A DNA stretch of 14,304 bases. Source: a virus (taxonomy: Duplodnaviria; Heunggongvirae; Uroviricota; Caudoviricetes). The stretch spans positions 1 through 14,304 of the IMG/VR virus record IMGVR_UViG_3300032291_002057. One strand, 5' to 3'. This document shows positions 2,317-14,261 of this stretch, one piece after another. The notes beneath the pieces were generated by a model. It was not told the DNA's origin. It made no database searches and saw only the letters and a list, made by a program, of their open reading frames with translations. Within the stretch, counting starts at the first letter, position 1. Every line of letters starts with the position of its first letter. The position numbers and the translations under genes were made by a program.

Positions 2317-2357
2317 GTAATTTTTTCTAGATTTTATGAAATTTTATTCAAAATGGA

Positions 2358-2382
2358 ATAAATATTCTGTCATCATATTTAT
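2358..2382. promoter_or_regulatory. Face-to-face pair of T4-like late-promoter boxes (ATAAATA on each strand)
   Basis: ATAAATAT at 2358-2365 and ATATTTAT at 2375-2382 form a perfect 8-bp inverted repeat with a 9-nt spacer between divergent genes. The core resembles the T4 late promoter TATAAATA. Confidence 0.6.
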
Positions 2383-2395
2383 ATTAGGAGAAACG

Positions 2396-3352
2396 ATGAA
2401 GAAACTTTTATGCATACTAGCACTTATTCCTGCACTATCATTTGCATGGCAACCAACAAAACCTATCACTGTTATATTCCCAAATGGTCCGGGGGCGGGC
2501 AATGAGATATCATTCTTTTTTGTTGCTGATATTGTAGAAAAGAAAACAGGTGTTACCTTTACAAGAGAACATAGACCTGGCGCAGACGGTAATATCGCAA
2601 TGAATCATTTTGCTACAGTTCCTAATGATGGACATACTATTGCAGTTCCTGCTTGTAATAGTCAATGGATTACTGCTGATGTATGGTACTCACAGATGTT
2701 AAAATACAATGTATATGATTTTGAACCAGTAGCAAACATAGCACGTAGTCCATTAGCATTTTGGGCACATCCCGAAAGTAAAGTCAACACTCCTGAAGAT
2801 TTGATTAGAGAAATACGTGAAAAGAAACGTCCTATTAATTTTGCTATCGGTGGAGGTGGACATAAATTAGCAGTAGAATATTTAACTACAAAACTAAATG
2901 TACCCGGTGGTGATAGAGTTCAGACAATTATGTACAAAGGTCCTGCACAAGCATTGATGGACACAATGGGAGGTCATACTGAGTTTTCTGTTACACCAGT
3001 GGGAGTAGGATATCCCCACGTTAAAGCAGGCAAGTTAAAATTGATTGGATTAGCAAGCGAAGTACCACTAAAAGGTTTAGAGTCTGCTCCATTAATGAGT
3101 AAGTATGCCCCAGGATTAAATTTATATGGTTGCTGGAACTTAGTACTACCTAAAGGAACATCCGCTGAGATACAAAAATGGTACCATGATAATTTTGTAC
3201 CTGCTATTCGTAGTAAAGAAGCAAAAGAAAAATTTGACGAGAACTTAATGTTCATAACTACTAAAGAACATTCTCCAGAAGGTGTCCGTGCTAGTATGGT
3301 ACTATTAAGTAGAGATTGGATTAACATAGCAAAGAAGATTAAACCTGAATGA
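2396..3352 (+). CDS. tctC: Tripartite tricarboxylate transporter substrate-binding protein (TctC/Bug family)
   Basis: Start reassigned to ATG 2396 (AGGAG at 2386-2390). Signal peptide MKKLLCILALIPALSFA|W; WQPTKPITVIFPNGPGAGNE, HRPGADGNIA, DGHTI, MYKGPAQAL, GKLKLIGL and W-LVLPKGT match the Bug/TctC pattern. Confidence 0.85.
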   Translation: MKKLLCILALIPALSFAWQPTKPITVIFPNGPGAGNEISFFFVADIVEKKTGVTFTREHRPGADGNIAMNHFATVPNDGHTIAVPACNSQWITADVWYSQMLKYNVYDFEPVANIARSPLAFWAHPESKVNTPEDLIREIREKKRPINFAIGGGGHKLAVEYLTTKLNVPGGDRVQTIMYKGPAQALMDTMGGHTEFSVTPVGVGYPHVKAGKLKLIGLASEVPLKGLESAPLMSKYAPGLNLYGCWNLVLPKGTSAEIQKWYHDNFVPAIRSKEAKEKFDENLMFITTKEHSPEGVRASMVLLSRDWINIAKKIKPE

Positions 3353-4777: not shown

Positions 4778-5011
4778 ATGCAACAACATATCTATACATC
4801 ATCAAAAGGCGAGAATTTTCTTTCATGGCACGAATGGGCCTTAACAACGTTAAATGAAGAAGATTTAGCAGTTTATATTGAACCTATCCCTGAAGGTGAA
4901 ATAATGTCAGAAGGCAAATTAGCACTATACAGTCGTTGGGTACAAGAAGAAAAAATTATCTCCCATAATGTTATGGAAGACGGTGTTTTGGTAATGGAAC
5001 ATGATATCTAA
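4778..5011 (+). CDS. Hypothetical protein, 77 aa, acidic
   Basis: ORF with SD AAAGGA; overlaps the next start by 11 nt. No recognised motif. Confidence 0.7.
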   Translation: MQQHIYTSSKGENFLSWHEWALTTLNEEDLAVYIEPIPEGEIMSEGKLALYSRWVQEEKIISHNVMEDGVLVMEHDI

Positions 5012-5579
5012 ACAGTTCATTACAGAATCAGCCGCATTAGACTTAGCAAAGAAGTTACCTTCTTTAGAAAAACACGACTATGATACCATTGATAGATTAA
5101 TGCGAAACATTGCAAGTAAGCATAGAATCAAGGCTGACGCACTACATGATCTATTTGTAAAAAAATATCACAAAACACCAGATAACTGGATCAAAAGTAA
5201 ACTAGATGAAGATGACCGAGAAGATTTGAATGATAATCCAATCATGCAAAAATTTATCAAATGGTCAGCCGATAAACTTAATTTAGAAACATTTCCAGAA
5301 ATTGAATTTAGTTATAGTACTGAAGAGGCACAAGCTGGACATCATACTGGTAGACATACAGTAGGTGAAAATAAGATTTGGGTTTATGTAAGAAATAGAA
5401 ATATGGTTGATATTATGCGTACCGTATTCCATGAATTAGTCCATTGCCGTCAAGGTGAAAAAGATATGATTAAGCCCGGAGACAGCTATCCAGGTAGCCC
5501 AATTGAGATGGAAGCAGATCAACTTGCGGGCAAATACATAAAAATATTTGGCAAAGAACATCCAGAAATCTTTGAATAA
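5001..5579 (+). CDS. Putative zinc metallopeptidase (HExxH zincin) with N-terminal helical domain
   Basis: RTVFHELVHCRQ with a downstream third ligand in SPIEMEADQLA. Confidence 0.7.
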   Translation: MISKQFITESAALDLAKKLPSLEKHDYDTIDRLMRNIASKHRIKADALHDLFVKKYHKTPDNWIKSKLDEDDREDLNDNPIMQKFIKWSADKLNLETFPEIEFSYSTEEAQAGHHTGRHTVGENKIWVYVRNRNMVDIMRTVFHELVHCRQGEKDMIKPGDSYPGSPIEMEADQLAGKYIKIFGKEHPEIFE

Positions 5580-5599
5580 ATAACATTCTGTGTTATCAT
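5572..5599 (+). promoter_or_regulatory. sigma70-type promoter of tilS (TTGAAT-16-TATCAT, extended -10 TGn)
   Basis: TTGAAT 5572-5577, TG 5591-5592, TATCAT 5594-5599. The ATG lies 7 nt downstream with no SD. Confidence 0.55.
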
Positions 5600-5605
5600 A
5601 CACAG

Positions 5606-6214
5606 ATGATTCATCTACTTTTTCCGTTACCAAAAGAGTTAATTGTCGCATTTAGCGGCGGTGTGGATAGTACCGCTATCGTAGATTTTTTAAGTAACAA
5701 ACACAAAGTAACATGTGCCTTCTTTCATCACGGCACTGAAAATAGCGAACGTGCATTTGAATTTGTTGCAAGGTTTTGCACTGAACGTGAATTACCTCTA
5801 ATAGTAGGCTTTATTAAAAACAGTAAATCAAAAGAATTAAGTACCGAAGAACATTGGCGTAATGAACGCTATGAATTTTTAAATAGCTTTGGTGATGGTC
5901 TAGGTCCTATTGTAACAGGACATCATTTAGATGATTGTGTTGAAACATATATCTGGTCAGCATTGCACGGTAAACCCAAAGTAATCCCTTGCGCTAGAAA
6001 TAATGTTATCCGACCATTTTTAACTACAACTAAACATGAATTTGTTAATTGGTGTGAGCGTAAAAATATTGAATGGTGCCATGATAACAGCAACGATGAC
6101 GACCATTACACTAGAAATTATGTTCGAAAACATTTAGTGCCACATGCATTACATGTTAACCCAGGGTTACGTACAACGGTTAAAAAGATTGTTGAACGTC
6201 AGCAAAATGTTTGA
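5606..6214 (+). CDS. tilS: tRNA(Ile)-lysidine synthetase, catalytic domain only (202 aa)
   Basis: PP-loop AFSGGVDS, HHG, RNERY, TGHHLDDCVET, IRPFL and DNSNDDDHYTRNYVR are TilS signature motifs. The C-terminal TilS domains are absent. Confidence 0.9.
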   Translation: MIHLLFPLPKELIVAFSGGVDSTAIVDFLSNKHKVTCAFFHHGTENSERAFEFVARFCTERELPLIVGFIKNSKSKELSTEEHWRNERYEFLNSFGDGLGPIVTGHHLDDCVETYIWSALHGKPKVIPCARNNVIRPFLTTTKHEFVNWCERKNIEWCHDNSNDDDHYTRNYVRKHLVPHALHVNPGLRTTVKKIVERQQNV

Positions 6215-6239
6215 CTTTTCTACACAGTCAATATATACT
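6211..6239 (+). promoter_or_regulatory. sigma70-type promoter of the DsbA-like / DNA polymerase operon (TTGACT-17-TATACT)
   Basis: TTGACT 6211-6216 (contains the tilS TGA stop), 17-nt spacer, TATACT 6234-6239. Confidence 0.85.
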
Positions 6240-6261
6240 AACTACTTTACAAGGAGAATCT

Positions 6262-6528
6262 ATGTCTGATTATAATCGCACCTTTAATGGTGATGCAAAA
6301 ATTAAGTTAACACAACTCATCAATGAGGGTATGTCAACATTACATGAAATTGATACGTTGAACGGTGGATTGAATGATACCATCAAAGCAATCGCAGAAG
6401 AATTGGAAATCAAGGCTTCAACATTGAAGAAAGCAATTAAGATTGCACACAAAGCAAGTTTAGGTCAGGCTAATAGAGACCATGACGAACTCAATACTAT
6501 TTTGGAAACTGTGGGTAAAACACTTTGA
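6262..6528 (+). CDS. Small dsDNA-binding protein, T4 DsbA / GapR (DUF2312)-like, 88 aa
   Basis: Start reassigned to ATG 6262 (AAGGAG at 6251-6256; the TTG at 6211 is the -35 box). Helical pattern LTQLINEG..EIDTL...LNDTIKAIAEELEIKASTLKKAIKIAHK resembles DsbA/GapR. Confidence 0.65.
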   Translation: MSDYNRTFNGDAKIKLTQLINEGMSTLHEIDTLNGGLNDTIKAIAEELEIKASTLKKAIKIAHKASLGQANRDHDELNTILETVGKTL

Positions 6529-9242
6529 GTTATGTAGATGCTATTCATAGCAGGGATGAGGATCGCATCTTTGTAGTTGAACGTGACAAAAATGGGTTGC
6601 GTCAATACAAAGAATATCCTGCTAATTACGTTTTATATTATCCTGACGTAAAGGGTAAGTATCGTAGTATCTATGGCAATCCTGTCAGTCGTTTTAGTAC
6701 TCGCAAACGTGCTGAGTTTGAAAAAGAAAAACGTATACAATCAGGTAAAAATCTGTTTGAGAGCGATATCAATCCTGTCTTCCGATGCCTGAGTGAAAAC
6801 TATTTAGGTGTTGATGCACCTAAACTACACACTTGTTTCTTTGACATTGAAGTAGACTTTGATCCAGAAAAAGGTTTCAGTCCTACTAGTGATCCATTCA
6901 ATCCAGTAACTGCAATCAGTATGTATTTGGATTGGCAAGATACACTAGTAACATTGTGTATTGCGCCAAAGCACATGACCACAGATACAGCATGGGAAAT
7001 CACTAAAGAGTTTGAGAACTGTTTGCTTTTCAATAACGAAAAGGAAATGTTTGATACATTCTTTGAATTGATTGAAGATGCTGATGTATTAACTGGTTGG
7101 AACTCAGAAGGATATGATATACCATATATGGTTAATCGTGTCACCCGTGTAATGAGTAAAGACGATACACGCAAATTCTGTTTAATGGGTCAACTACCCA
7201 AGCCAAGAGAATATGAACGATTTGGTAAGTCAGAACAGACTTATGATTTGGTTGGTCGTATTCACATGGACTATCTTCAACTCTATAAGAAGTACAATTA
7301 TGAAAGTCGCCATAGCTATAAACTAGATGCTATTGGTGAGTTGGAGGTTGGTGAGAACAAAACACAATATGAAGGTACTCTTGACCAATTGTATAACAAG
7401 GACTTTAAGAGGTTCATTGAATACAATCGACAAGATACCATGTTGTTGGTAAAGATTCACAACAAATTAAAATTCTTAGAGTTAGCTAATCAACTAGCAC
7501 ATGAAAACACAGTACTGCTTCCAACAGTAATGGGTTCAGTGGCTATGATTGAAATGGCTATATTTAATGAAGCCCACGAACGTGGTTTAGTTGTCCCTGA
7601 TAAAAAACGAAGGAAAGAAAATGCAGAAGATGTCCAACAAGCGGCAGGTGCCTATGTTGCTACGCCCAAAAGAGGTATGCACGAATACGTCGGAGCAGTT
7701 GATATCAACTCGCTCTACCCCTCGGTTATTAGAGCCCTTAATATGGCGGGAGAAACAATCGTCGGGCAAGTCAGACAAACAATAACTGACCAGTATATGG
7801 CTGATAAAGGTCAAAGACTTGCATCAGAAAAGAAACGTCACAAAGAGGGTGATGATGCAGTTACTGGTAGTATTCTATGGGAAAATTTGTTTGGTGCATT
7901 AGAGTACACTGCAATTATGAATCAAGAACGTGGCACTATGCTTACAATTGATTATGAAGATGGTCGTAGTGAAGAACTGAGTGCGGCAGAAATATGGAAA
8001 CTGGTCTTTGATAGTCATAAGCCTTGGATGCTTAGTGCAAATGGTACAATCTTTACGTATGAAAAAGAAGGTGTTGTTCCTGGATTACTATCTCGCTGGT
8101 ATAGTGACCGTAAAGAAATGCAGAAAAAACTAAAAGAAGCAACGACCCAAACTGATAGAGAGTATTGGGATAAGCGACAACTGGTACGCAAGATTTTGCT
8201 TAACTCTGCATACGGCGCACTATTGAATGAGCATTGCAGGTTCTATGATAAACGTATTGGTCAATCAGTAACATTGAGTGGTCGGCAGATTGTTCGTCAT
8301 ATGATGAGCCAAATCAATGAATGTGTTACTGGTGAATATAATCACGAAGGTAGCGCAATTGTTTATGGTGATACTGACAGTTGTTATTTTAGTGCATATC
8401 CTGTTCTCTATTCGCAAATACAGAATGGTGAATTACAATGGGATAAAGACTTGTGCATCTCATTGTATGATAACATTGCTGACCAAACGAATGATAGTTT
8501 TCCTGGATTCATGGAAAAAGCATTTCACTCACCTCGAAAGAATGGCGAGATTATTAAAGCTGGTCGTGAACTGATCGGTGATCGTAGTATCTTTATTACA
8601 AAGAAACGTTATGCTATCAATATCTTTGATAAAGAAGGCAAGCGTAAAGACAGTGAAGGTAAAGCAGGAGATATTAAGGCTATGGGTCTTGATTTGAAAC
8701 GTGCAGATACTCCTAAACAAGTACAAGAGTTCTTAATGTCTATTCTTAGTATGGTAATTCAAGAAGGTAAAGGTCGTGATGAAGTCATTGACAAAGTGAA
8801 AGAATTCAAACGTGTGTTATCTCAACAAGACAGTTGGACTAAGGGTTCTCCTAAAGGTGTTAATAAGTTAACAAGCTATGGAGAACTTGAAGCTAACAGT
8901 AAAACAGGTCGTGCTAACATGCCCGGTCACGTTCGTGCGGCACTTAACTATAATTATTTGCGTAAAGTTCACGGAGATAACTACAGTCAAAAAATTGTTG
9001 ATGGAATGAAAATTGTAGTATGCAAACTCAAGCCCAATCCATTAGGATTTACAAGTGTTGCATATCCAGTAGATGAATTACGTTTACCGCAATGGTTCTG
9101 TGACTTGCCATTTGACGATGATGCTATGGAGCAAACACTTGTTGATGAAAAGATTGACAACTTGCTTGGAGTATTAGATTGGGACATTCGCAGTAACACA
9201 GATGTAAAATCAACATTTGATGAATTGTTTACATTCGGTTAA
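6525..9242 (+). CDS. gp43: Family B DNA polymerase, T4 gp43-like, uninterrupted
   Basis: ExoI FFDIEVD, ExoII WNSEGYDIPY, ExoIII YNRQDT, motif A VDINSLYPS, motif B KILLNSAYG, motif C YGDTDS, and C-terminal clamp-binding-like STFDELFTFG. TTG start overlaps the upstream TGA. Confidence 0.97.
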   Translation: MSYVDAIHSRDEDRIFVVERDKNGLRQYKEYPANYVLYYPDVKGKYRSIYGNPVSRFSTRKRAEFEKEKRIQSGKNLFESDINPVFRCLSENYLGVDAPKLHTCFFDIEVDFDPEKGFSPTSDPFNPVTAISMYLDWQDTLVTLCIAPKHMTTDTAWEITKEFENCLLFNNEKEMFDTFFELIEDADVLTGWNSEGYDIPYMVNRVTRVMSKDDTRKFCLMGQLPKPREYERFGKSEQTYDLVGRIHMDYLQLYKKYNYESRHSYKLDAIGELEVGENKTQYEGTLDQLYNKDFKRFIEYNRQDTMLLVKIHNKLKFLELANQLAHENTVLLPTVMGSVAMIEMAIFNEAHERGLVVPDKKRRKENAEDVQQAAGAYVATPKRGMHEYVGAVDINSLYPSVIRALNMAGETIVGQVRQTITDQYMADKGQRLASEKKRHKEGDDAVTGSILWENLFGALEYTAIMNQERGTMLTIDYEDGRSEELSAAEIWKLVFDSHKPWMLSANGTIFTYEKEGVVPGLLSRWYSDRKEMQKKLKEATTQTDREYWDKRQLVRKILLNSAYGALLNEHCRFYDKRIGQSVTLSGRQIVRHMMSQINECVTGEYNHEGSAIVYGDTDSCYFSAYPVLYSQIQNGELQWDKDLCISLYDNIADQTNDSFPGFMEKAFHSPRKNGEIIKAGRELIGDRSIFITKKRYAINIFDKEGKRKDSEGKAGDIKAMGLDLKRADTPKQVQEFLMSILSMVIQEGKGRDEVIDKVKEFKRVLSQQDSWTKGSPKGVNKLTSYGELEANSKTGRANMPGHVRAALNYNYLRKVHGDNYSQKIVDGMKIVVCKLKPNPLGFTSVAYPVDELRLPQWFCDLPFDDDAMEQTLVDEKIDNLLGVLDWDIRSNTDVKSTFDELFTFG

Positions 9243-9249
9243 ATTGATG

Positions 9250-9278
9250 TTGACTTTCGCAATATATTCCATCATAAT
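9250..9278 (+). promoter_or_regulatory. sigma70-type promoter of the clamp / TGT-like operon (TTGACT-17-CATAAT)
   Basis: TTGACT 9250-9255, CATAAT 9273-9278. Confidence 0.8.
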
Positions 9279-9294
9279 ACACAACATAACTACC

Positions 9295-9300
9295 TAAATA
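9295..9300 (+). promoter_or_regulatory. Possible late-promoter box TAAATA upstream of the clamp gene
   Basis: CCTAAATAG lies upstream of SD AAAGGA (9313-9318) and ATG 9324. Confidence 0.4.
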
Positions 9301-9323
9301 GTAGTAACACTTAAAGGAAAAAC

Positions 9324-10055
9324 ATGAAAGATTATTTGAAAGATTTGATTGACCATACACATGGTCTAGGTAATATTGACTTGATTAAAGTCACGGGTTC
9401 AGCAACTGAAACTACTATCAATGCAATTGCAGAAGATAAGGCAGTTATTGTTAGTGGAACATTTAAGACTCCCATCGCTGACTTCATTGGTGTGTTTGGT
9501 ATGCCAAATTTGAGCAAGTTAAAAACTATTGTTGGCTTTGAAGAATATGATGAACATGCTAAAATTAATGTTGTTAGTACACAGCGAGATGGTATGGATG
9601 TTCCTAGTACTATTCACTTTCAAACTAAGAACGGCGACTTTATCAATGACTATCGTTTGATGTCCAAAGGTATTGTTGAAGAAAAGGTAAAAAGTGTAAC
9701 GTTCAAGGGTGCTTCATGGAATATAGATTTTGAACCAACTATTGCAGGCATCTTGCGTTTAAAGAAGCAATCAAGTGCTAATAGTGAAGAAAAAACTTTT
9801 ACAACTAAAACTGAAAATAGTGATTTAAAAATCTATTTTGGTGATCCATCTACTCACAGTGGTAACTTTGTATTTCATACAGGTATCACAGGTTCTTTAT
9901 CAAAAGCATGGGCGTGGCCTGTAAAAGAATTTATGAGTATCATGGATCTAGTTGGTGACAAGGTTGTTCGCATTAGCGATCAGGGTGCTACTGAAATCAC
10001 TGTAGATAGCGGGATTGCAGTATATCGTTATCTATTGCCTGCACAACAAAAATGA
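9324..10055 (+). CDS. Putative DNA polymerase sliding clamp (T4 gp45/PCNA-like)
   Basis: 243 aa, alternating strand/helix pattern consistent with a two-domain clamp (FGMPNLSKLKTIV, DFINDYRLM, FVFH, WAWPVKEFMSIM, EITVDSGIAVYRYLLPA). Sits immediately after the polymerase. Call rests on size, pattern and context. Confidence 0.65.
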   Translation: MKDYLKDLIDHTHGLGNIDLIKVTGSATETTINAIAEDKAVIVSGTFKTPIADFIGVFGMPNLSKLKTIVGFEEYDEHAKINVVSTQRDGMDVPSTIHFQTKNGDFINDYRLMSKGIVEEKVKSVTFKGASWNIDFEPTIAGILRLKKQSSANSEEKTFTTKTENSDLKIYFGDPSTHSGNFVFHTGITGSLSKAWAWPVKEFMSIMDLVGDKVVRISDQGATEITVDSGIAVYRYLLPAQQK

Positions 10056-10444
10056 TTAACAACATAACACCAATCGGCAAATACATACAGGTTTCTGGCA
10101 GCGGTTCTACCTACGTGTCTAGGAGTTATAACTCAAATGCCAAGATGGTCGGTGACATGATGTATGATGTTGATGCTCAATGTATCAAAGTGTTTGATGG
10201 CAATAGTTGGACAATATTGGCAAGTCCCTCAGTTTCTGTTGGGTTAAATCACGAAGCAGAAAGTTTATTAGATTGGGCAAGAAAGAAGCGTAACGAAGAA
10301 TTAGAATATGAACAACTTGCCGAAACTAATCCTGCCATCAAAGATTTGTTAAGTCAAATCAAAACAAAAGAAGAACAAATACAAATGGTAATGACTTTAC
10401 TTAAAAGTCCAGGAAATGAGCCAGTAGAATTAATGGGAAGTTAA
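10052..10444 (+). CDS. Hypothetical protein, 130 aa, C-terminal coiled coil
   Basis: ATGA overlap upstream and TAATG overlap downstream. No recognised catalytic motif. Confidence 0.75.
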   Translation: MINNITPIGKYIQVSGSGSTYVSRSYNSNAKMVGDMMYDVDAQCIKVFDGNSWTILASPSVSVGLNHEAESLLDWARKKRNEELEYEQLAETNPAIKDLLSQIKTKEEQIQMVMTLLKSPGNEPVELMGS

Positions 10445-12000
10445 TGGAACAAGATAACTTATCACAAAAACAAAATCCAGACTGGGCATTGTTTTTACCC
10501 GCAGTTAGTAGTTTTTATATTGCTGGTTTAGGCAAACAACGTAAGGGTGAAGACTACTTTGATAAAGCAAGAATCCCTGCAGGCTTTAATGGTGATGTAG
10601 AGAAACTAAACTTTCTTAATAGCAAAGAAGGTCTTTACTATTATAAATGGGGTCTATATTCAGCAGGTCATGCAAACTTGGATACAACAGTTGATGACCA
10701 TAATGAAAGCATCATACGTGAACGTGAACAAGGTACGTTTATGTTAGGTGATAGTGGTGGTTTTCAGATATTAAAGGCTCAATGGCCTGCTGACTGGAAA
10801 GATCCTAATTGCCCACGTGCTATGAAAAAGCGTAAACAAGTATTGACATGGATGGATACATACATGGACTATGGTATGTGTTTAGATATCCCAAGTCAGT
10901 CATTGACTACGTTTCATATTCAAGACCCAAAGACTAAAACATCTGCTCACGGTATCAGTACTATTGAAGAAGCTATCACAGCAACACATATCAACAATGA
11001 GTACTTTATTAAGAATCGCAATGGTAAATGCAAGTTTTTGAATGTACTTCAAGGTCGCAATCATACTCAATCACAAGATTGGTATAATGAAATGAAGAAG
11101 TATTGTGACCCTAATGTATATCCAGACAATCATTTTAATGGTTGGGCGTTTGGTGGACAAAATAAGATTGATGTTCATTTGATGTTAACACGTATGATTG
11201 ATATCATATATGATGGATTGTTACAAGAAGGTAAACATGATTTGATTCATTGCTTGGGTACAAGTATTTTAGAATATGCAGTATTGTTTACTGATATTCA
11301 AAAAGCTATTCGTAAGTATCATAATCCTAAACTACAAATTACATTTGACTGTGCAAGTCCTTTCTTTAGTGCGGCTAAAGGTTTAGCATATTTCAATACT
11401 AGTATTGAGCATAATAAAAAGTGGTCATACAGTATGGAAAAGACTGCGGAGAAAAAGTCTTATGCAAATGACACACGTAAGTTCAGTACTGCTGTTCTTG
11501 CTGAGGGTGTTCATAAACTGTTCACTGATAGTCCGGTAACTGATAAATTAATTCTTAAAGACCTGTGCTATCGTGGTGTAGGTTTCATTGGTCAACACGG
11601 TAAAGAAACAAAAACAAGCTGGGATACATTGAGTTATACACTAATTCAGTCACACAATGTTTGGATGCATATGAATGCAGTCCAAGAAGCAAACCGTAGA
11701 TATGAACAAGGAATAGTTCCTAAAATGTTAATGAATGAAACATTTGAAAGTGTTTTATTTAAAGACATTATAGATGAAGTATTCAGTAAAAAAACTAAAC
11801 AAGAAGCCATTGATTTAATAGATAGTCATTCAAGACTATGGATGCAATTTCAATCAGGTAGTCAAGGTATTAGTGGTAAAAAAACTGTTAATGCTATGAC
11901 AATGTTTGACCAGTTATTTGAACAGGAAGAAAATGATTCAGAAGTTGAAGAAATTATTGAAGATAGTGATGATGAAATGGCGCAAATTTTGGAGGCGTAA
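10444..12000 (+). CDS. tRNA-guanine transglycosylase-fold protein, probably a DpdA-like DNA guanine transglycosylase
   Basis: TGT barrel motifs in order: MLGDSGGFQ (10750-10767 for DSGGFQ), MCLDIPS, LNVLQG, GWAFGG, IHCLG, ITFDCASP and SHNVW. The CxCxxC zinc motif is absent. Acidic C-terminal tail. Confidence 0.8.
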   Translation: MEQDNLSQKQNPDWALFLPAVSSFYIAGLGKQRKGEDYFDKARIPAGFNGDVEKLNFLNSKEGLYYYKWGLYSAGHANLDTTVDDHNESIIREREQGTFMLGDSGGFQILKAQWPADWKDPNCPRAMKKRKQVLTWMDTYMDYGMCLDIPSQSLTTFHIQDPKTKTSAHGISTIEEAITATHINNEYFIKNRNGKCKFLNVLQGRNHTQSQDWYNEMKKYCDPNVYPDNHFNGWAFGGQNKIDVHLMLTRMIDIIYDGLLQEGKHDLIHCLGTSILEYAVLFTDIQKAIRKYHNPKLQITFDCASPFFSAAKGLAYFNTSIEHNKKWSYSMEKTAEKKSYANDTRKFSTAVLAEGVHKLFTDSPVTDKLILKDLCYRGVGFIGQHGKETKTSWDTLSYTLIQSHNVWMHMNAVQEANRRYEQGIVPKMLMNETFESVLFKDIIDEVFSKKTKQEAIDLIDSHSRLWMQFQSGSQGISGKKTVNAMTMFDQLFEQEENDSEVEEIIEDSDDEMAQILEA

Positions 12001-12001
12001 A

Positions 12002-12211
12002 ATGTACGAAAATCAAATTGATAAATTACAACAACAATTTAATAATCTTGATACACAAATAAGTGTTACTAAACAAAATCCTAACTATGATTCTCTTGTA
12101 CTACAAAACATGGAGAGCCAGAGGCACCTGATTTATTATGAAATTCAACGATTAAAACGTAAACAGTGGGAAGAAGATAACGAACGAGTTGAGTTCGATG
12201 ATGACCGTTAA
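12002..12211 (+). CDS. Small coiled-coil hypothetical protein, 69 aa (DUF465/YdcH-like pattern, weak)
   Basis: Start reassigned to ATG 12002 with GGAGG at 11991-11995; LDTQI...EIQRL heptad pattern. Confidence 0.65.
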   Translation: MYENQIDKLQQQFNNLDTQISVTKQNPNYDSLVLQNMESQRHLIYYEIQRLKRKQWEEDNERVEFDDDR

Positions 12212-12212
12212 T

Positions 12213-12767
12213 ATGATACCAAACTTAGAAAAACCAATAATTAATTTTGATCCAAAAAGAAAAATATTCATTAAAGAGAATGTTTTGGATCCTGATATGT
12301 GTGACAGTATTATTGAGTTTGGAAAAACTAATGTAATCAAAGGAGTGAACAAATATACACACTTATTTGACATAAGTTTTCATTCTTGTATATTACCATT
12401 AAATCACGAATCACATGTTAAATTATCAGATACGTGGAATGAAATTAGTGAACATTTGAATATGCCGATTGATTTTGTAGAACCTTATGAATTAAAAAGG
12501 TATACTCCTACTGATTTTTTCGGGAAGCATACAGACAATTATTTTTGTCACAAAGATGGCATTGATAGGAAAATTACATTGAGTATACAACTTACTGATG
12601 AAACAGACTTCACTGGTGGAGATTTCTTAATCCTTAATCAACCTGGTCCAAAAGCAAAAGGTAGTATTGTAGCATTTCCCAGTTTCTTCCCACATGAAGT
12701 GAAACCAATTGATACTGGTGTTAGATGGTCATTAATAAGCTGGGCTTGGGGAAAAGATTTTACTTAA
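12213..12767 (+). CDS. 2OG-Fe(II) oxygenase, prolyl-4-hydroxylase/PKHD-type
   Basis: Start likely ATG 12213. KRY...KHTD (HxD), RKITLSIQL, DFTGGDF, GSIVAFPSFFPHEVKPI (distal H), GVRWSLISW (2OG-binding R). Confidence 0.85.
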   Translation: MIPNLEKPIINFDPKRKIFIKENVLDPDMCDSIIEFGKTNVIKGVNKYTHLFDISFHSCILPLNHESHVKLSDTWNEISEHLNMPIDFVEPYELKRYTPTDFFGKHTDNYFCHKDGIDRKITLSIQLTDETDFTGGDFLILNQPGPKAKGSIVAFPSFFPHEVKPIDTGVRWSLISWAWGKDFT

Positions 12768-12781
12768 ACTAACCAATAACA

Positions 12782-12810
12782 TTGTATTACTAACAAAACA
12801 ATGTTATACT
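12782..12810 (+). promoter_or_regulatory. sigma70-type promoter of the QueD-like / sugar-enzyme operon (TTGTAT-17-TATACT, extended -10)
   Basis: TTGTAT 12782-12787, TG 12802-12803, TATACT 12805-12810. Confidence 0.75.
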
Positions 12811-12838
12811 AATTTTATATTAACTAACTGTAATAACT

Positions 12839-13291
12839 ATGGAACAAAACATTCAAGCAATGACTGAAAAACGTGTACGCATTAAACATCACGCCAAACG
12901 TATGATTTTCGTAACATTTCAAAAAGAGGGTATTCATTTATACCCAGCGGCAGCAACAGATCCAGCACTCGCAACGGGTGATGAATATGATGTTAGCTTT
13001 TTAGGAACTCCACATCGTCACATCTTTCACTTTAATGTGGCGATTGAAGTATTTCACAACGACAGGGATATTGAATTCATTCAATTTAAACGCTGGTTAG
13101 AGAATCTCTATAAAGGCGGAACACTTGAATTGAATTACAAGAGTTGTGAAATGATTAGTGATGACCTCTACGAAGTTATTGCTACTAGATATCCCGAGCG
13201 TGACATTGAGATTACTGTCTCCGAAGACGGTGAGAACGGTGCTACGATTTATTACAACACAACAAAACCTTTCAACAACCTCGCTATTTAA
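12839..13291 (+). CDS. QueD/PTPS-like tunnelling-fold protein lacking the catalytic Cys
   Basis: Aligns by eye with QueD: FQKEGIHLYP ~ FTFEAAHRLP, PHRHIF ~ LHGHSF, IEFIQFK ~ IDFAELK, SCEMI ~ TSEVL, TVSEDGENGATIY ~ MVKETCTAGCIY. Start could be the ATG at 12860. Confidence 0.7.
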   Translation: MEQNIQAMTEKRVRIKHHAKRMIFVTFQKEGIHLYPAAATDPALATGDEYDVSFLGTPHRHIFHFNVAIEVFHNDRDIEFIQFKRWLENLYKGGTLELNYKSCEMISDDLYEVIATRYPERDIEITVSEDGENGATIYYNTTKPFNNLAI

Positions 13292-13302
13292 AGGAAAACA
13301 AA

Positions 13303-13509
13303 ATGGCAAAACCAACATTTCAAACTAATCCCCGTGTTACTCAACTATTTGAAGACTTAGAAAAATACAAAGAGTTTTGCGTAGACTTTGGGTATAAGTA
13401 TGATGAAGCAGATTTATATAACCAACGCAGTTATGTATATCGACAATATACTAAATTTGCTACAGGTAAAAATGCAAAAAATCAATGGTCGGAACACGCA
13501 CGTCCATGA
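13303..13509 (+). CDS. Hypothetical protein, 68 aa, aromatic-rich
   Basis: SD AAAGGA directly upstream; ATGA overlap with the next gene. Confidence 0.75.
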   Translation: MAKPTFQTNPRVTQLFEDLEKYKEFCVDFGYKYDEADLYNQRSYVYRQYTKFATGKNAKNQWSEHARP

Positions 13510-14261
13510 AAATAGTATTAGTCACTGGGGGATTTGATCCTCTACATAGTGGGCATATTGAATATTTTCGTGCCGCTAAACAATTAGGAGACTTACTAGT
13601 TGTAGGTCTAAACAGTGACGCATGGCTGACCCGTAAGAAAGGTCAGCCTTTTATGCCTCTGGAAGAACGTAGAGCCATTGTTGGTTCATTGAAAGATGTT
13701 CATGCTACTATGACATTCAATGATGATGACGGTTCTGCTAAAGATTTATTAGTAAAAATCAAACGTGAGTTTCCATATGCTAAGATTGTGTTTGCTAACG
13801 GCGGTGATAGAACACCGGATAACATTCCTGAAATGGATGTACCTAACATTGAATTTGCATTTGGCGTAGGTGGTGATAACAAAATGAACAGTAGTAGTTG
13901 GATACTACGTGAATGGAAGCAACCTAAAATATTGCGTCAATGGGGTTACTATCGTATACTGCATGATGTACCCGGGACTAAAGTAAAAGAATTAACAGTA
14001 GAGCCGGGTAAAAGTTTAAGTTTACAACGGCATAAACATAGAGCAGAATATTGGCATATATCAGAAGGAAGATGTGCTGTAGAACAAAGAATGCCAAATG
14101 GATATCAGTTACCTATAGTAGAATTAGATACACTAAGTCAGACAGTTATACCTATGCACGATTGGCATAGATTGTATAATCCGTTTGATGTTCCATGCAG
14201 AATAATAGAAATTCAATATGGTACGGAATGCAATGAAGAAGATATTGAGAGAAAAGAATGA
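13506..14261 (+). CDS. Fusion: cytidylyltransferase-family nucleotidyltransferase (RfaE/HldE/TagD-like) + mannose-6-phosphate-isomerase type II-like cupin
   Basis: Start reassigned to ATG 13506 (ATGA overlap). N-domain TGGFDPLHSGH (HxGH), GLNSD, RKKGQPF, FANGGDR. C-domain RQWGYYRIL, VKELTVEPGKSLSLQRHKHRAEYW, WHRLYNP, IIEIQYG, EEDIER. Confidence 0.85.
   Translation: MKIVLVTGGFDPLHSGHIEYFRAAKQLGDLLVVGLNSDAWLTRKKGQPFMPLEERRAIVGSLKDVHATMTFNDDDGSAKDLLVKIKREFPYAKIVFANGGDRTPDNIPEMDVPNIEFAFGVGGDNKMNSSSWILREWKQPKILRQWGYYRILHDVPGTKVKELTVEPGKSLSLQRHKHRAEYWHISEGRCAVEQRMPNGYQLPIVELDTLSQTVIPMHDWHRLYNPFDVPCRIIEIQYGTECNEEDIERKE

Follow-up and report, generated by a model that had tools for sequence, protein, structure and literature searches.

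The subject of this analysis is a 14,304-nucleotide stretch of viral DNA (hereafter the window), the first 14.3 kb of the 114-kb IMG/VR viral contig IMGVR_UViG_3300032291_002057 (completeness about 30% by CheckV), and in particular a gene at 10444-12000 whose 518-aa product has the predicted fold of tRNA-guanine transglycosylases (TGTs). The disordered tail of this protein carries a short motif, TMFDQLF, which has a close counterpart at the very end of the DNA polymerase encoded upstream, and a gene between the two encodes a protein predicted to fold as a sliding clamp. The explanation that we favour, and regard as probable though by no means secure, is that the 518-aa protein is a DpdA-type enzyme which docks on the phage's own clamp via its polymerase-like tail motif, so that base exchange would be coupled to replication. 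Contigs of 345-483 kb carry close relatives, indicating that the phage is an uncultured jumbo phage. The features on which the argument turns are listed below in window coordinates.

6525-9242, + strand: family-B DNA polymerase, T4 gp43-like, 905 aa, recognised by Pfam DNA_pol_B and DNA_pol_B_exo1 and by phrog_262
9210-9239, + strand: C-terminal peptide of the polymerase, STFDELFTFG, a putative clamp-binding motif, read from the translation
9324-10055, + strand: predicted sliding clamp subunit, PCNA/gp45-like, two domains, 243 aa, assigned by the fold of its AlphaFold2 (AF2) model
10444-12000, + strand: DpdA-like transglycosylase with a predicted TGT fold, 518 aa, of which about residues 10-431 form the barrel, assigned by AF2 fold, motifs and hhalign
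11863-11997, + strand: tail of the enzyme, residues 474-518, predicted to be disordered (predicted local confidence, pLDDT, below 50), with a short helix at residues 508-517 by DSSP
11899-11919, + strand: TMFDQLF motif, residues 486-492, from the translation and its conservation
11920-11997, + strand: acidic stretch and predicted terminal amphipathic helix (DSDDEMAQILEA), residues 493-518, a conserved second element of the tail

A tail motif common to the polymerase and the enzyme

The polymerase is readily recognised by sequence (DNA_pol_B, E 4.9e-42, and DNA_pol_B_exo1, E 5.2e-23, in Pfam; the DNA polymerase family phrog_262, E 1.5e-197). An earlier note, made from the DNA letters, had read its end as KSTFDELFTFG, with STFDELF at 9210-9230, and had placed TMFDQLF of the TGT-like protein at 11899-11919, after the catalytic barrel and just ahead of an acidic, likely disordered tail; both readings agree with the translations in letters and coordinates. 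The enzyme motif is followed by EQEENDSEVEEIIEDSDDEMAQILEA up to the stop codon, an acidic tail of 26 residues, and the whole of residues 474-518 was modelled with pLDDT below 50. The note had also likened the motif to the clamp-binding peptides of T4, and the comparison holds for T4 gp43, which ends EEKASLDFLFG (ASLDFLFG being the part that resembles the end found here). The tails of T4 gp43, gp55, gp33 and T4 ligase bind the clamp gp45, the structure 6drt being that of gp45 with the ligase peptide. As the polymerase tail in the window is of the gp43 kind, the clamp is the obvious partner for the peptides of both the polymerase and the enzyme.

The motif was followed through relatives at several distances. 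Among about 80 related loci, retrieved with a narrower alignment that yielded close relatives only (72-89% identity), the polymerase ends S-T-F-D-[DES]-L-F-x-F-G, and the enzyme motif is retained nearly everywhere, the residues after it being variable or lost. Where the acidic tail is missing, the enzyme ends TKFNELFTFE or FNELFSFA, much as a polymerase does (compare TFDDLFSFG), and where the first copy has decayed (L057, L061, L062, L066, L075 and L079) a second copy stands at the C-terminal end, for example VLNNLFTFG. Such drift of the flanks, together with reappearance at the C-terminus after decay, is the behaviour of a selected linear motif. An alignment of 29 sequences, reaching down to 28% identity, gave the same picture: F488 is invariant, F492 nearly so, and the flanks vary.

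The earlier note had named conservation of F-D-x-L-F in homologue C-termini as a check on its proposal, and conserved it is, also at larger distances. We took 108 full-length representatives at 50% identity or less, searched the last 90 aa of each and used shuffled tails as controls. The strict motif was present in 23 of the 108, against 2.4 expected (at most 8 in 1000 shuffles), and was about 20 times denser in the tails than in the cores of these proteins. When a terminal [LMF]F was also counted, 46 of the 108 carried it, against 8.2 ± 2.6 in shuffled tails; the regular expression used overlooks several further variants. The alignments and counts together indicate that the element is a conserved short linear motif under selection, with the consensus [ST]-x-F-[DNE]-x-L-F.

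The motif is also selective within a genome. Among the non-overlapping ORFs (open reading frames) of at least 60 aa in the 114-kb contig, F-[DN]-x-[LM]-F occurs within the last 45 residues only in the polymerase and the enzyme. The complete genome of the Pseudomonas jumbo phage PA5oct (408 ORFs) gave the same result for F-[DN]-x-L-F within the last 60 residues: only the homologous polymerase (HFDSLFGW) and enzyme (SFNSLFDV) carry it. Within any one lineage, the polymerase and enzyme tails are alike. More distant polymerases end in variants such as KFESLFD, HFDSLFGW, AMKLFNY and LSTFFEF, and the pairs, with the polymerase given first, are FDELF and FDQLF in the window, KFESLFD and FDGLFD in L083, FDSLF and FNSLF in PA5oct, AMKLFNY and AKSLFEF in L117, and LSTFFEF and NLSLFEF in L119. 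A clamp-type motif is therefore common to polymerase and enzyme in at least five lineages. A looser scan of PA5oct also brought up a 167-aa phrog_11279 protein of unassigned function (142245-142748; 9245-9748 in L108) that ends PIDIAELFK, possibly a further clamp-type tail.

Behind the motif, the second tail element follows the pattern DSDDAMxExLGE or DSDD[AE]Mxx[IV]L[EG]. It is recognisable in homologues of 30-50% identity (EFDTELLDKLE, REDDALDSLEA, MNDEKIVALEK) and absent where the motif is C-terminal. To judge from this conservation, the acidic stretch and the helix imply a further interaction partner.

Two members of the family that have no motif could be placed in their surroundings. The first comes from a bacterial island that also holds QueC, QueD and QueE, the second from phage contigs of some 33 kb with integrase genes, and no clamp gene was present in the DNA retrieved for either. 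Set against the eight phage lineages described below, these two members are no more than suggestive of a dependence of the motif on clamp gene context. Five proteins (P0293, P0306, P0319, P0355 and P0356) lack F-D-x-L-F and have W-[AN]-T-[TD]-D-L-E-[EP]-F near the C-terminus instead. The P0293 gene (L087) is found in a bacterial genomic island together with QueD, QueE, QueC, a resolvase, an integrase and an NB-ARC protein.

The upstream clamp gene and the predicted complex

The earlier note had assigned 9324-10055, between the polymerase and TGT-like genes, to a putative clamp; the position follows from the ORF map, and the assignment is borne out by the predicted fold. The AF2 model, for which 21 homologues were used (three of them at 26-36% identity, from distant loci), has a pLDDT of 91.3 and consists of repeated H-E-E-E-E units. 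In an exhaustive structural search, the top 38 matches were all sliding clamps, aligned over their full length, after which Z fell below 6. The model matches A. fulgidus PCNA with Z 18.1 (root-mean-square deviation (rmsd) 3.2 Å, 221 residues aligned) and T4 gp45 with the ligase peptide (6drt) with Z 16.2 (rmsd 3.2 Å, 211 residues aligned). Beta clamps, the 9-1-1 complex and herpesvirus processivity factors were among the other matches, and Foldseek returned PCNA at E 3e-10. By sequence, the protein has no match in Pfam, including the clamp families DNA_PPF, DNA_pol3_beta and PCNA, belongs to phrog_12062, which has no assigned function, and finds nothing credible in the PDB; its similarity to T4 gp45 is undetectable (BLASTP E 0.28). 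By predicted fold only, then, 9324-10055 encodes a PCNA/gp45-type clamp subunit with two domains. Its C-terminus is conserved as Y-x-Y-L-L-P-A, which resembles YYLAPK, the segment that we take to line the pocket of PCNA for PCNA-interacting protein (PIP) boxes. No second clamp was found in the 114-kb contig, from which PF02916 and PF00712 are absent, and the metagenome protein collection holds more than 3900 homologues of the clamp protein. The PA5oct orthologue (L002, MK797984.1 221902-222648; also L097) is annotated as a 'structural protein' from virion mass spectrometry; the family being that of a sliding clamp by predicted fold, this annotation is probably misleading.

The genes follow one another in the order polymerase (6525-9242), clamp (9324-10055), small ORF (10052-10444) and TGT-like enzyme (10444-12000). 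In all eight phage lineages with enough upstream DNA, the enzyme gene is preceded by that of a clamp homologue, from which it is separated by no more than 0-2 small non-homologous ORFs.

Prediction of the complex between the clamp trimer and enzyme residues 471-518, another check that the earlier note had suggested, gave weak support. The score was 0.43 in three runs, against 0.02 for the best control, and fell to 0.00 when the clamp was swapped for an unrelated protein. Of 80 solved complexes, 58 attained this mark, as did 2 of 110 mismatched pairs; with scores of 0.60 or below, however, only 7 of the 80 did so, against both of the mismatches. Agreement of contacts between runs was at least 59% and the partner pLDDT at least 43, with no interface reported. 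The prediction exceeds its controls, although its pass may reflect likeness to solved PCNA-PIP and gp45-peptide complexes. On the analogy with T4/RB69 gp43 and with the PIP-box clients of PCNA, we consider binding of the motif to the clamp fairly likely.

Identity of the enzyme and rival explanations

The 518-aa protein is unmatched in Pfam, PHROGs and NCBIfam, and likewise in the PDB, both by phmmer and with a 64-sequence profile; its identification as a TGT therefore relies on fold, motifs and hhalign. The family is large, with more than 5800 homologues in a metagenome protein collection clustered at 90% and 849 representatives at 50% identity. Across 64 diverse homologues S73, D103, S104, G106, D148, P150, H269 and D302 are invariant, and the motifs GDSGGFQ (with D103), LDIP or LDxP (with D148) and FDCAS (with D302) are retained. 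We take DSGGFQ, LDxP and FDCAS to be signatures of tRNA-guanine transglycosylases, and D103, D148 and D302 to be the equivalents of D102, D156 and D280 in the Z. mobilis TGT. As for the structural zinc site (CxCxxC...H), nowhere in the 64-sequence alignment is a Cys cluster invariant.

The AF2 model of the enzyme (pLDDT 89.5, predicted template modelling score 0.88) matches bacterial, archaeal and human TGTs with Z 17-18.6 over about 300 residues, the T. maritima TGT with Z 18.6. The top five of an exhaustive structural search were ArcTGT (Z 18.1), QTRT2 (17.0), TGT (15.8), the DNA preQ0 insertase DpdA 7ui4 (15.2; rmsd 4.6, 308 residues aligned) and Cap10 (14.0), and generic TIM barrels ranked below them at Z 11.5 or less. 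In a viral structure library, the matches were a Motura 'tRNA guanine transglycosylase', a protein of Vibrio phage nt-1 and a protein of Cellulophaga phage phiST. The nt-1 protein VPFG_00171 is DpdA2, which was shown to insert preQ0 into DNA (PMC10516641). By hhalign, the enzyme family aligns with it at a probability of 94.1% (E 1.2e-7, 171 columns), and the DSGGFQ, LDxP, HxLG and FDCAS motifs fall together; the relationship is distant, as the family hidden Markov model finds a match of only 19.6 bits in the nt-1 genome and there is no similarity at BLAST level. From this remote homology and the modelled fold, the 518-aa protein appears to be a DpdA-type DNA transglycosylase of a divergent subfamily outside current profile libraries, for which we claim no named subfamily. 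A link to DpdA1 is not claimed, Enterobacteria phage 9g being unmatched by the family profile. The TGT/DpdA-like identity given in the earlier note is accordingly sustained by the TGT fold and by the alignment with an active DpdA2.

From these results, a mechanism may be proposed. The TGT barrel would perform guanine exchange, and the disordered tail of about 45 residues would carry the docking motif, which would enter the hydrophobic pocket of the PCNA-like clamp encoded immediately upstream. Clamps remaining on the new duplex would then hold the enzyme behind the fork and raise its local concentration on unmodified nascent DNA, where guanine would be replaced by a 7-deazaguanine made by the phage FolE, QueD and QueE-like enzymes. 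Polymerase and enzyme would compete for, or share, the pockets of the trimeric ring. That the substrate is DNA, that exchange is coupled to replication and which base is inserted are all inferences; for DNA rather than tRNA, the reasons are the homology to DpdA2 and the gene context.

Several observations weigh against this mechanism. About half of the distant homologues have no recognisable motif, and in the window the motif is internal and followed by a conserved acidic tail that could bind something else or alter the use of the motif. The sole complex prediction is weak and came without a reported interface. No sequence library (Pfam, PHROGs, NCBIfam, PDB) names the 518-aa protein, and its fold is no closer to DpdA (Z 15.2) than to tRNA TGTs (Z 15.8-18.6), so that the substrate cannot be separated by fold. 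A clamp loader was not found in the 114-kb contig (PF00004; PF13177, DNA_pol3_delta2), which leaves the clamp system incomplete there, a result that is uninformative for about 30% of a genome; the sole strong AAA match there is at contig positions 51603-51920, and in the relative L117 a 415-aa AAA protein near the locus has weak matches to clamp-loader PHROGs (E 7e-7). In T4, according to one report, the binding of alpha-glucosyltransferase to gp45 is not the main determinant of the level and pattern of glucosylation, and tethering may thus matter little even if it is real (PMC13216743). As for the replication-coupled exchange put forward in the earlier note, the clamp, the TGT fold and the disordered, conserved motif speak for it, the complex prediction lends it weak support, and none of the outcomes that the note had listed as refuting it was observed.

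The strongest competitor accepts the docking peptide as real and gives it another hub of the replisome as partner, such as the single-stranded DNA-binding protein, the helicase or primase, the clamp loader or a scaffold, so that the enzyme would be recruited without riding the clamp. A conserved motif common to the polymerase shows a common partner without naming it, the complex prediction with the clamp is weak, and the second conserved tail element, acidic and helical, implies at least one further interaction. Nevertheless, the polymerase end is close to that of T4 gp43, whose partner is gp45, in eight lineages the gene upstream of that of the enzyme is invariably the clamp gene, and the tail that scored 0.43 with the clamp scored 0.00 with an unrelated protein in its place. 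We consider another hub unlikely, although it deserves to be kept in mind.

Less credible, and in our view improbable, is an intramolecular role, in which the tail would inhibit its own enzyme by mimicking DNA, its acidic and hydrophobic parts folding back onto the face of the barrel that binds DNA, and would resemble the polymerase tail by convergence. The tail is indeed strongly acidic with a conserved terminal helix, and DNA-mimicking acidic tails are known in other DNA-binding proteins. However, many lineages without the acidic tail keep a C-terminal, polymerase-like motif (FNELFTFE or NNLFTFG), AF2 left the tail undocked on the barrel with pLDDT below 50, and polymerase tails matched to the enzyme lineage by lineage would be left unexplained.

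More improbable still is a tRNA substrate, the enzyme then being a phage tRNA-guanine transglycosylase and its motif having nothing to do with DNA modification. In fold it lies no further from tRNA TGTs (Z 15.8-18.6) than from DpdA (Z 15.2), and in this respect the earlier note's argument for DNA as opposed to tRNA gains nothing from the structure. That argument does stand on the homology, as the only sequence-level link to a characterised protein leads to nt-1 DpdA2, a DNA insertase, and on the context, the gene being situated between replication genes and a modification cluster. The model moreover has no domain beyond the barrel, the disordered tail aside, a clamp-type motif would be of no obvious use to a tRNA enzyme, and the DNA of the relative PA5oct is resistant to restriction (PMC12191111).

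Finally, a resemblance of tails due to chance or composition, with a functionless motif, is the least credible of all and very unlikely on the conservation data, for although only five positions of this short motif are defined, and AT-rich phage proteomes contain much Phe, Asp and Leu, the shuffled tails fell far short of the observed counts under both definitions (2.4 against 23 and 8.2 against 46), the motif is retained amid diverging flanks and regained at the C-terminus after decay, and in two genomes only the polymerase and enzyme tails carry it.

Clamp docking by a DpdA-like enzyme, which we continue to prefer, would have consequences beyond the window. Phage 7-deazaguanine modification is regarded as post-replicative, with large and unexplained differences in efficiency between DpdA subfamilies, and the question of how a base-exchange enzyme, in the course of a single infection, reaches enough guanines in a genome of several hundred kb has yet to be answered (PMC10516641). 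Docking on the clamp, if true, would offer an answer, since the enzyme would be concentrated on newly replicated DNA, and a base-exchange enzyme would join the short list of clamp clients. Two abundant 'hypothetical' families, that of the enzyme (more than 5800 homologues) and that of the clamp (more than 3900), would at the same time receive functions. Should tethering be dispensable, as argued for T4 alpha-glucosyltransferase, the finding reduces to an improvement of annotation. The earlier note was not aware of clamp tethering having been described for DpdA proteins, and our full-text literature searches on DpdA or deazaguanine together with clamp likewise found no such proposal. Tethering of a phage DNA-modifying enzyme to a clamp is not new in itself, T4 alpha-glucosyltransferase being the nearest precedent; what would be new is its use by a DpdA-like enzyme.

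Known systems, relatives and neighbouring genes

One parallel to the arrangement proposed here is the set of gp45 clients in T4/RB69 (gp43, gp55, gp33 and ligase). In both systems a family-B polymerase has a hydrophobic end, several unrelated proteins carry one kind of peptide, and the clamp has the two-domain gp45/PCNA fold, which is predicted for the clamp in the window (Z 16.2 to 6drt) and would make it, too, one of the trimer type. The differences are that the clamp here has no sequence similarity to gp45 and is nearest in fold to archaeal and eukaryotic PCNA, that the consensus is F-[DN]-x-L-F, not L-D-F-L-F, with an enzyme motif that is often internal and followed by an acidic tail, and that the putative client, a base-exchange enzyme, is outside the known T4 clients.

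A second parallel is provided by DNA-modifying or base-processing enzymes recruited to sliding clamps, such that modification follows the fork, as would be the case here. Eukaryotic DNMT1 and UNG2 bind PCNA through PIP boxes, and Sommer et al. 2004 reportedly found that T4 alpha-glucosyltransferase binds gp45. The latter two proteins co-purify according to PMC13216743, and a shared tail peptide of the F-D-x-L-F kind is not described in the text consulted. In contrast to the glucosyl transfer of T4 alpha-glucosyltransferase and the methyl transfer of DNMT1, the reaction expected here is base exchange.

With nt-1 DpdA2 the enzyme shares, besides similar length, aligned DSGG[FL]Q, [LF]D-x-IP, H-x-LG and [FY]D-[CS]-[AS]S motifs and adjoining FolE, QueD and QueC genes; the relation is nevertheless very distant, and the nt-1 tail, ending TAEYPDFKS, has no F-D-x-L-F. 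The bacterial DpdA of the Dpd system (7ui4) and the TGTs (bacterial, ArcTGT, QTRT1/2) have the same TIM-barrel TGT fold and the aspartates of the DSGGFQ and FDC types, whereas the enzyme of the window has large insertions and an extra disordered tail with the motif, and is devoid of a PUA or other RNA-binding domain.

No match to the locus was found by megablast in 50,697 phage records. Among cultured phages, the enzyme gene has its nearest relatives in the Pseudomonas jumbo phage PA5oct and phages related to it, at 34% identity, and also in Sinorhizobium phage Phosso and a Vibrio jumbo phage. In PA5oct the 'hypothetical protein' EST35_0316 is the orthologue of the enzyme (34% identity, E 1e-65) and the 'structural protein' EST35_0314 that of the clamp, neither being functionally annotated; the order polymerase, clamp, small ORF, enzyme is the same, and both tails carry the motif. 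PA5oct differs in being a cultured Pseudomonas phage and in having a polymerase gene split by a homing endonuclease: its two halves (L002 1-4831) are separated by a Hef-like homing endonuclease gene, whereas the polymerase gene of the window is intact. In L117, too, the polymerase gene (4955-9154) is split, by an intein-type insertion (Intein_splicing match) and a 340-aa ORF. A deazaguanine synthesis and incorporation system has been reported for PA5oct (PMC7824862), and its DNA resists several restriction enzymes in a pattern suggesting modified G (PMC12191111); a link to the clamp is unmentioned in these two papers. PA5oct and its Pseudomonas host offer a culturable model for the tethering idea.

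Around the clamp and enzyme genes, two further features are of note.

9250-9278, + strand: sigma-70-like promoter candidate by consensus match only, TTGACT-17-CATAAT, 10 of 12 positions agreeing, in the 81-bp gap before the clamp gene
10052-10444, + strand: small ORF, 130 aa, role unassigned, with stop/start codon overlap with both neighbours

The stop of the clamp ORF overlaps the start of 10052-10444, the end of which overlaps the start of the enzyme gene, and no terminator-like site was found on the + strand between the three genes. These overlaps and the absence of such a site make co-transcription of the three downstream ORFs plausible, in line with the earlier note, which had the clamp and TGT-like genes transcribed together. 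A conserved third component between the clamp and enzyme genes was considered and dropped, the small ORFs being non-homologous across six aligned lineages; the counterparts of 10052-10444 elsewhere (45-132 aa, or none) show no detectable homology to it.

Genes of 7-deazaguanine synthesis are found 5-10 kb downstream of the enzyme gene in the same genome, namely FolE (E 4e-63), QueD/PTPS (E 4e-16) and a QueE-like radical-SAM gene (weak, E 2e-5). Elsewhere, members of the enzyme family adjoin FolE, QueC, QueD, QueE, phosphoribosyltransferase and radical-SAM genes, and PA5oct has QueE nearby. For QueC, the 114-kb contig yielded nothing clear beyond a TilS-like PP-loop protein. A PP-loop ATPase of 202 aa is encoded at 5606-6214 in the window, immediately before the polymerase; it matches TilS in the N-terminal domain only (TIGR02432, E 4e-37), gives a faint signal for QueC and may take over chemistry of the QueC type.

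The cluster that follows the enzyme gene (window 12189-14261; genome 14258-24668, L094) encodes a 2-oxoglutarate-Fe(II) oxygenase, a cytidylyltransferase-cupin fusion, two glycosyltransferases, an IMPDH/GMP-reductase-like protein and FolE, followed by a second cytidylyltransferase, an adenylylsulphate (APS)-kinase-like P-loop kinase, QueD, the QueE-like radical-SAM protein and an NAD-dependent epimerase/dehydratase. Comparable genes (glycosyltransferase, epimerase, FolE, IMPDH-like protein and phosphoribosyltransferase) are found in the marine relative L084. To go by its gene content, the cluster suggests a 7-deazaguanine that is elaborated further and possibly bears a sugar. Extended to the whole clade, the reading would be that the uncultured jumbo phages of fresh and sea water, a very large and abundant clade to which the cultured PA5oct also belongs, made 7-deazaguanine insertion a function of the replisome by means of a clamp-hooked DpdA-like enzyme, each new duplex undergoing base exchange just behind the fork, and that neighbouring oxygenase, glycosyltransferases and sugar-nucleotide enzymes may elaborate the base into an undescribed hypermodified, possibly glycosylated form; we put this forward tentatively, with rather more doubt than conviction.

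Within the cluster, 12839-13291 encodes a 150-aa phrog_17812 protein of unassigned function with the motif HRHIFHFNVAIEVFHNDRDIEF. In the distant locus L088, the gene immediately before that of the enzyme encodes a clear homologue of it (2288-2686: EHRHEFHFRVHLEVFHNDREVEF), and on this sequence evidence the protein looks like a conserved member of the modification cluster. Further upstream in the window, 706-1515 encodes a non-specific DNA/RNA endonuclease (Endonuclease_NS, E 3e-36), and 2336-3352 a periplasmic tricarboxylate-binding protein resembling TctC (E 3e-21), which is unusual as phage cargo.

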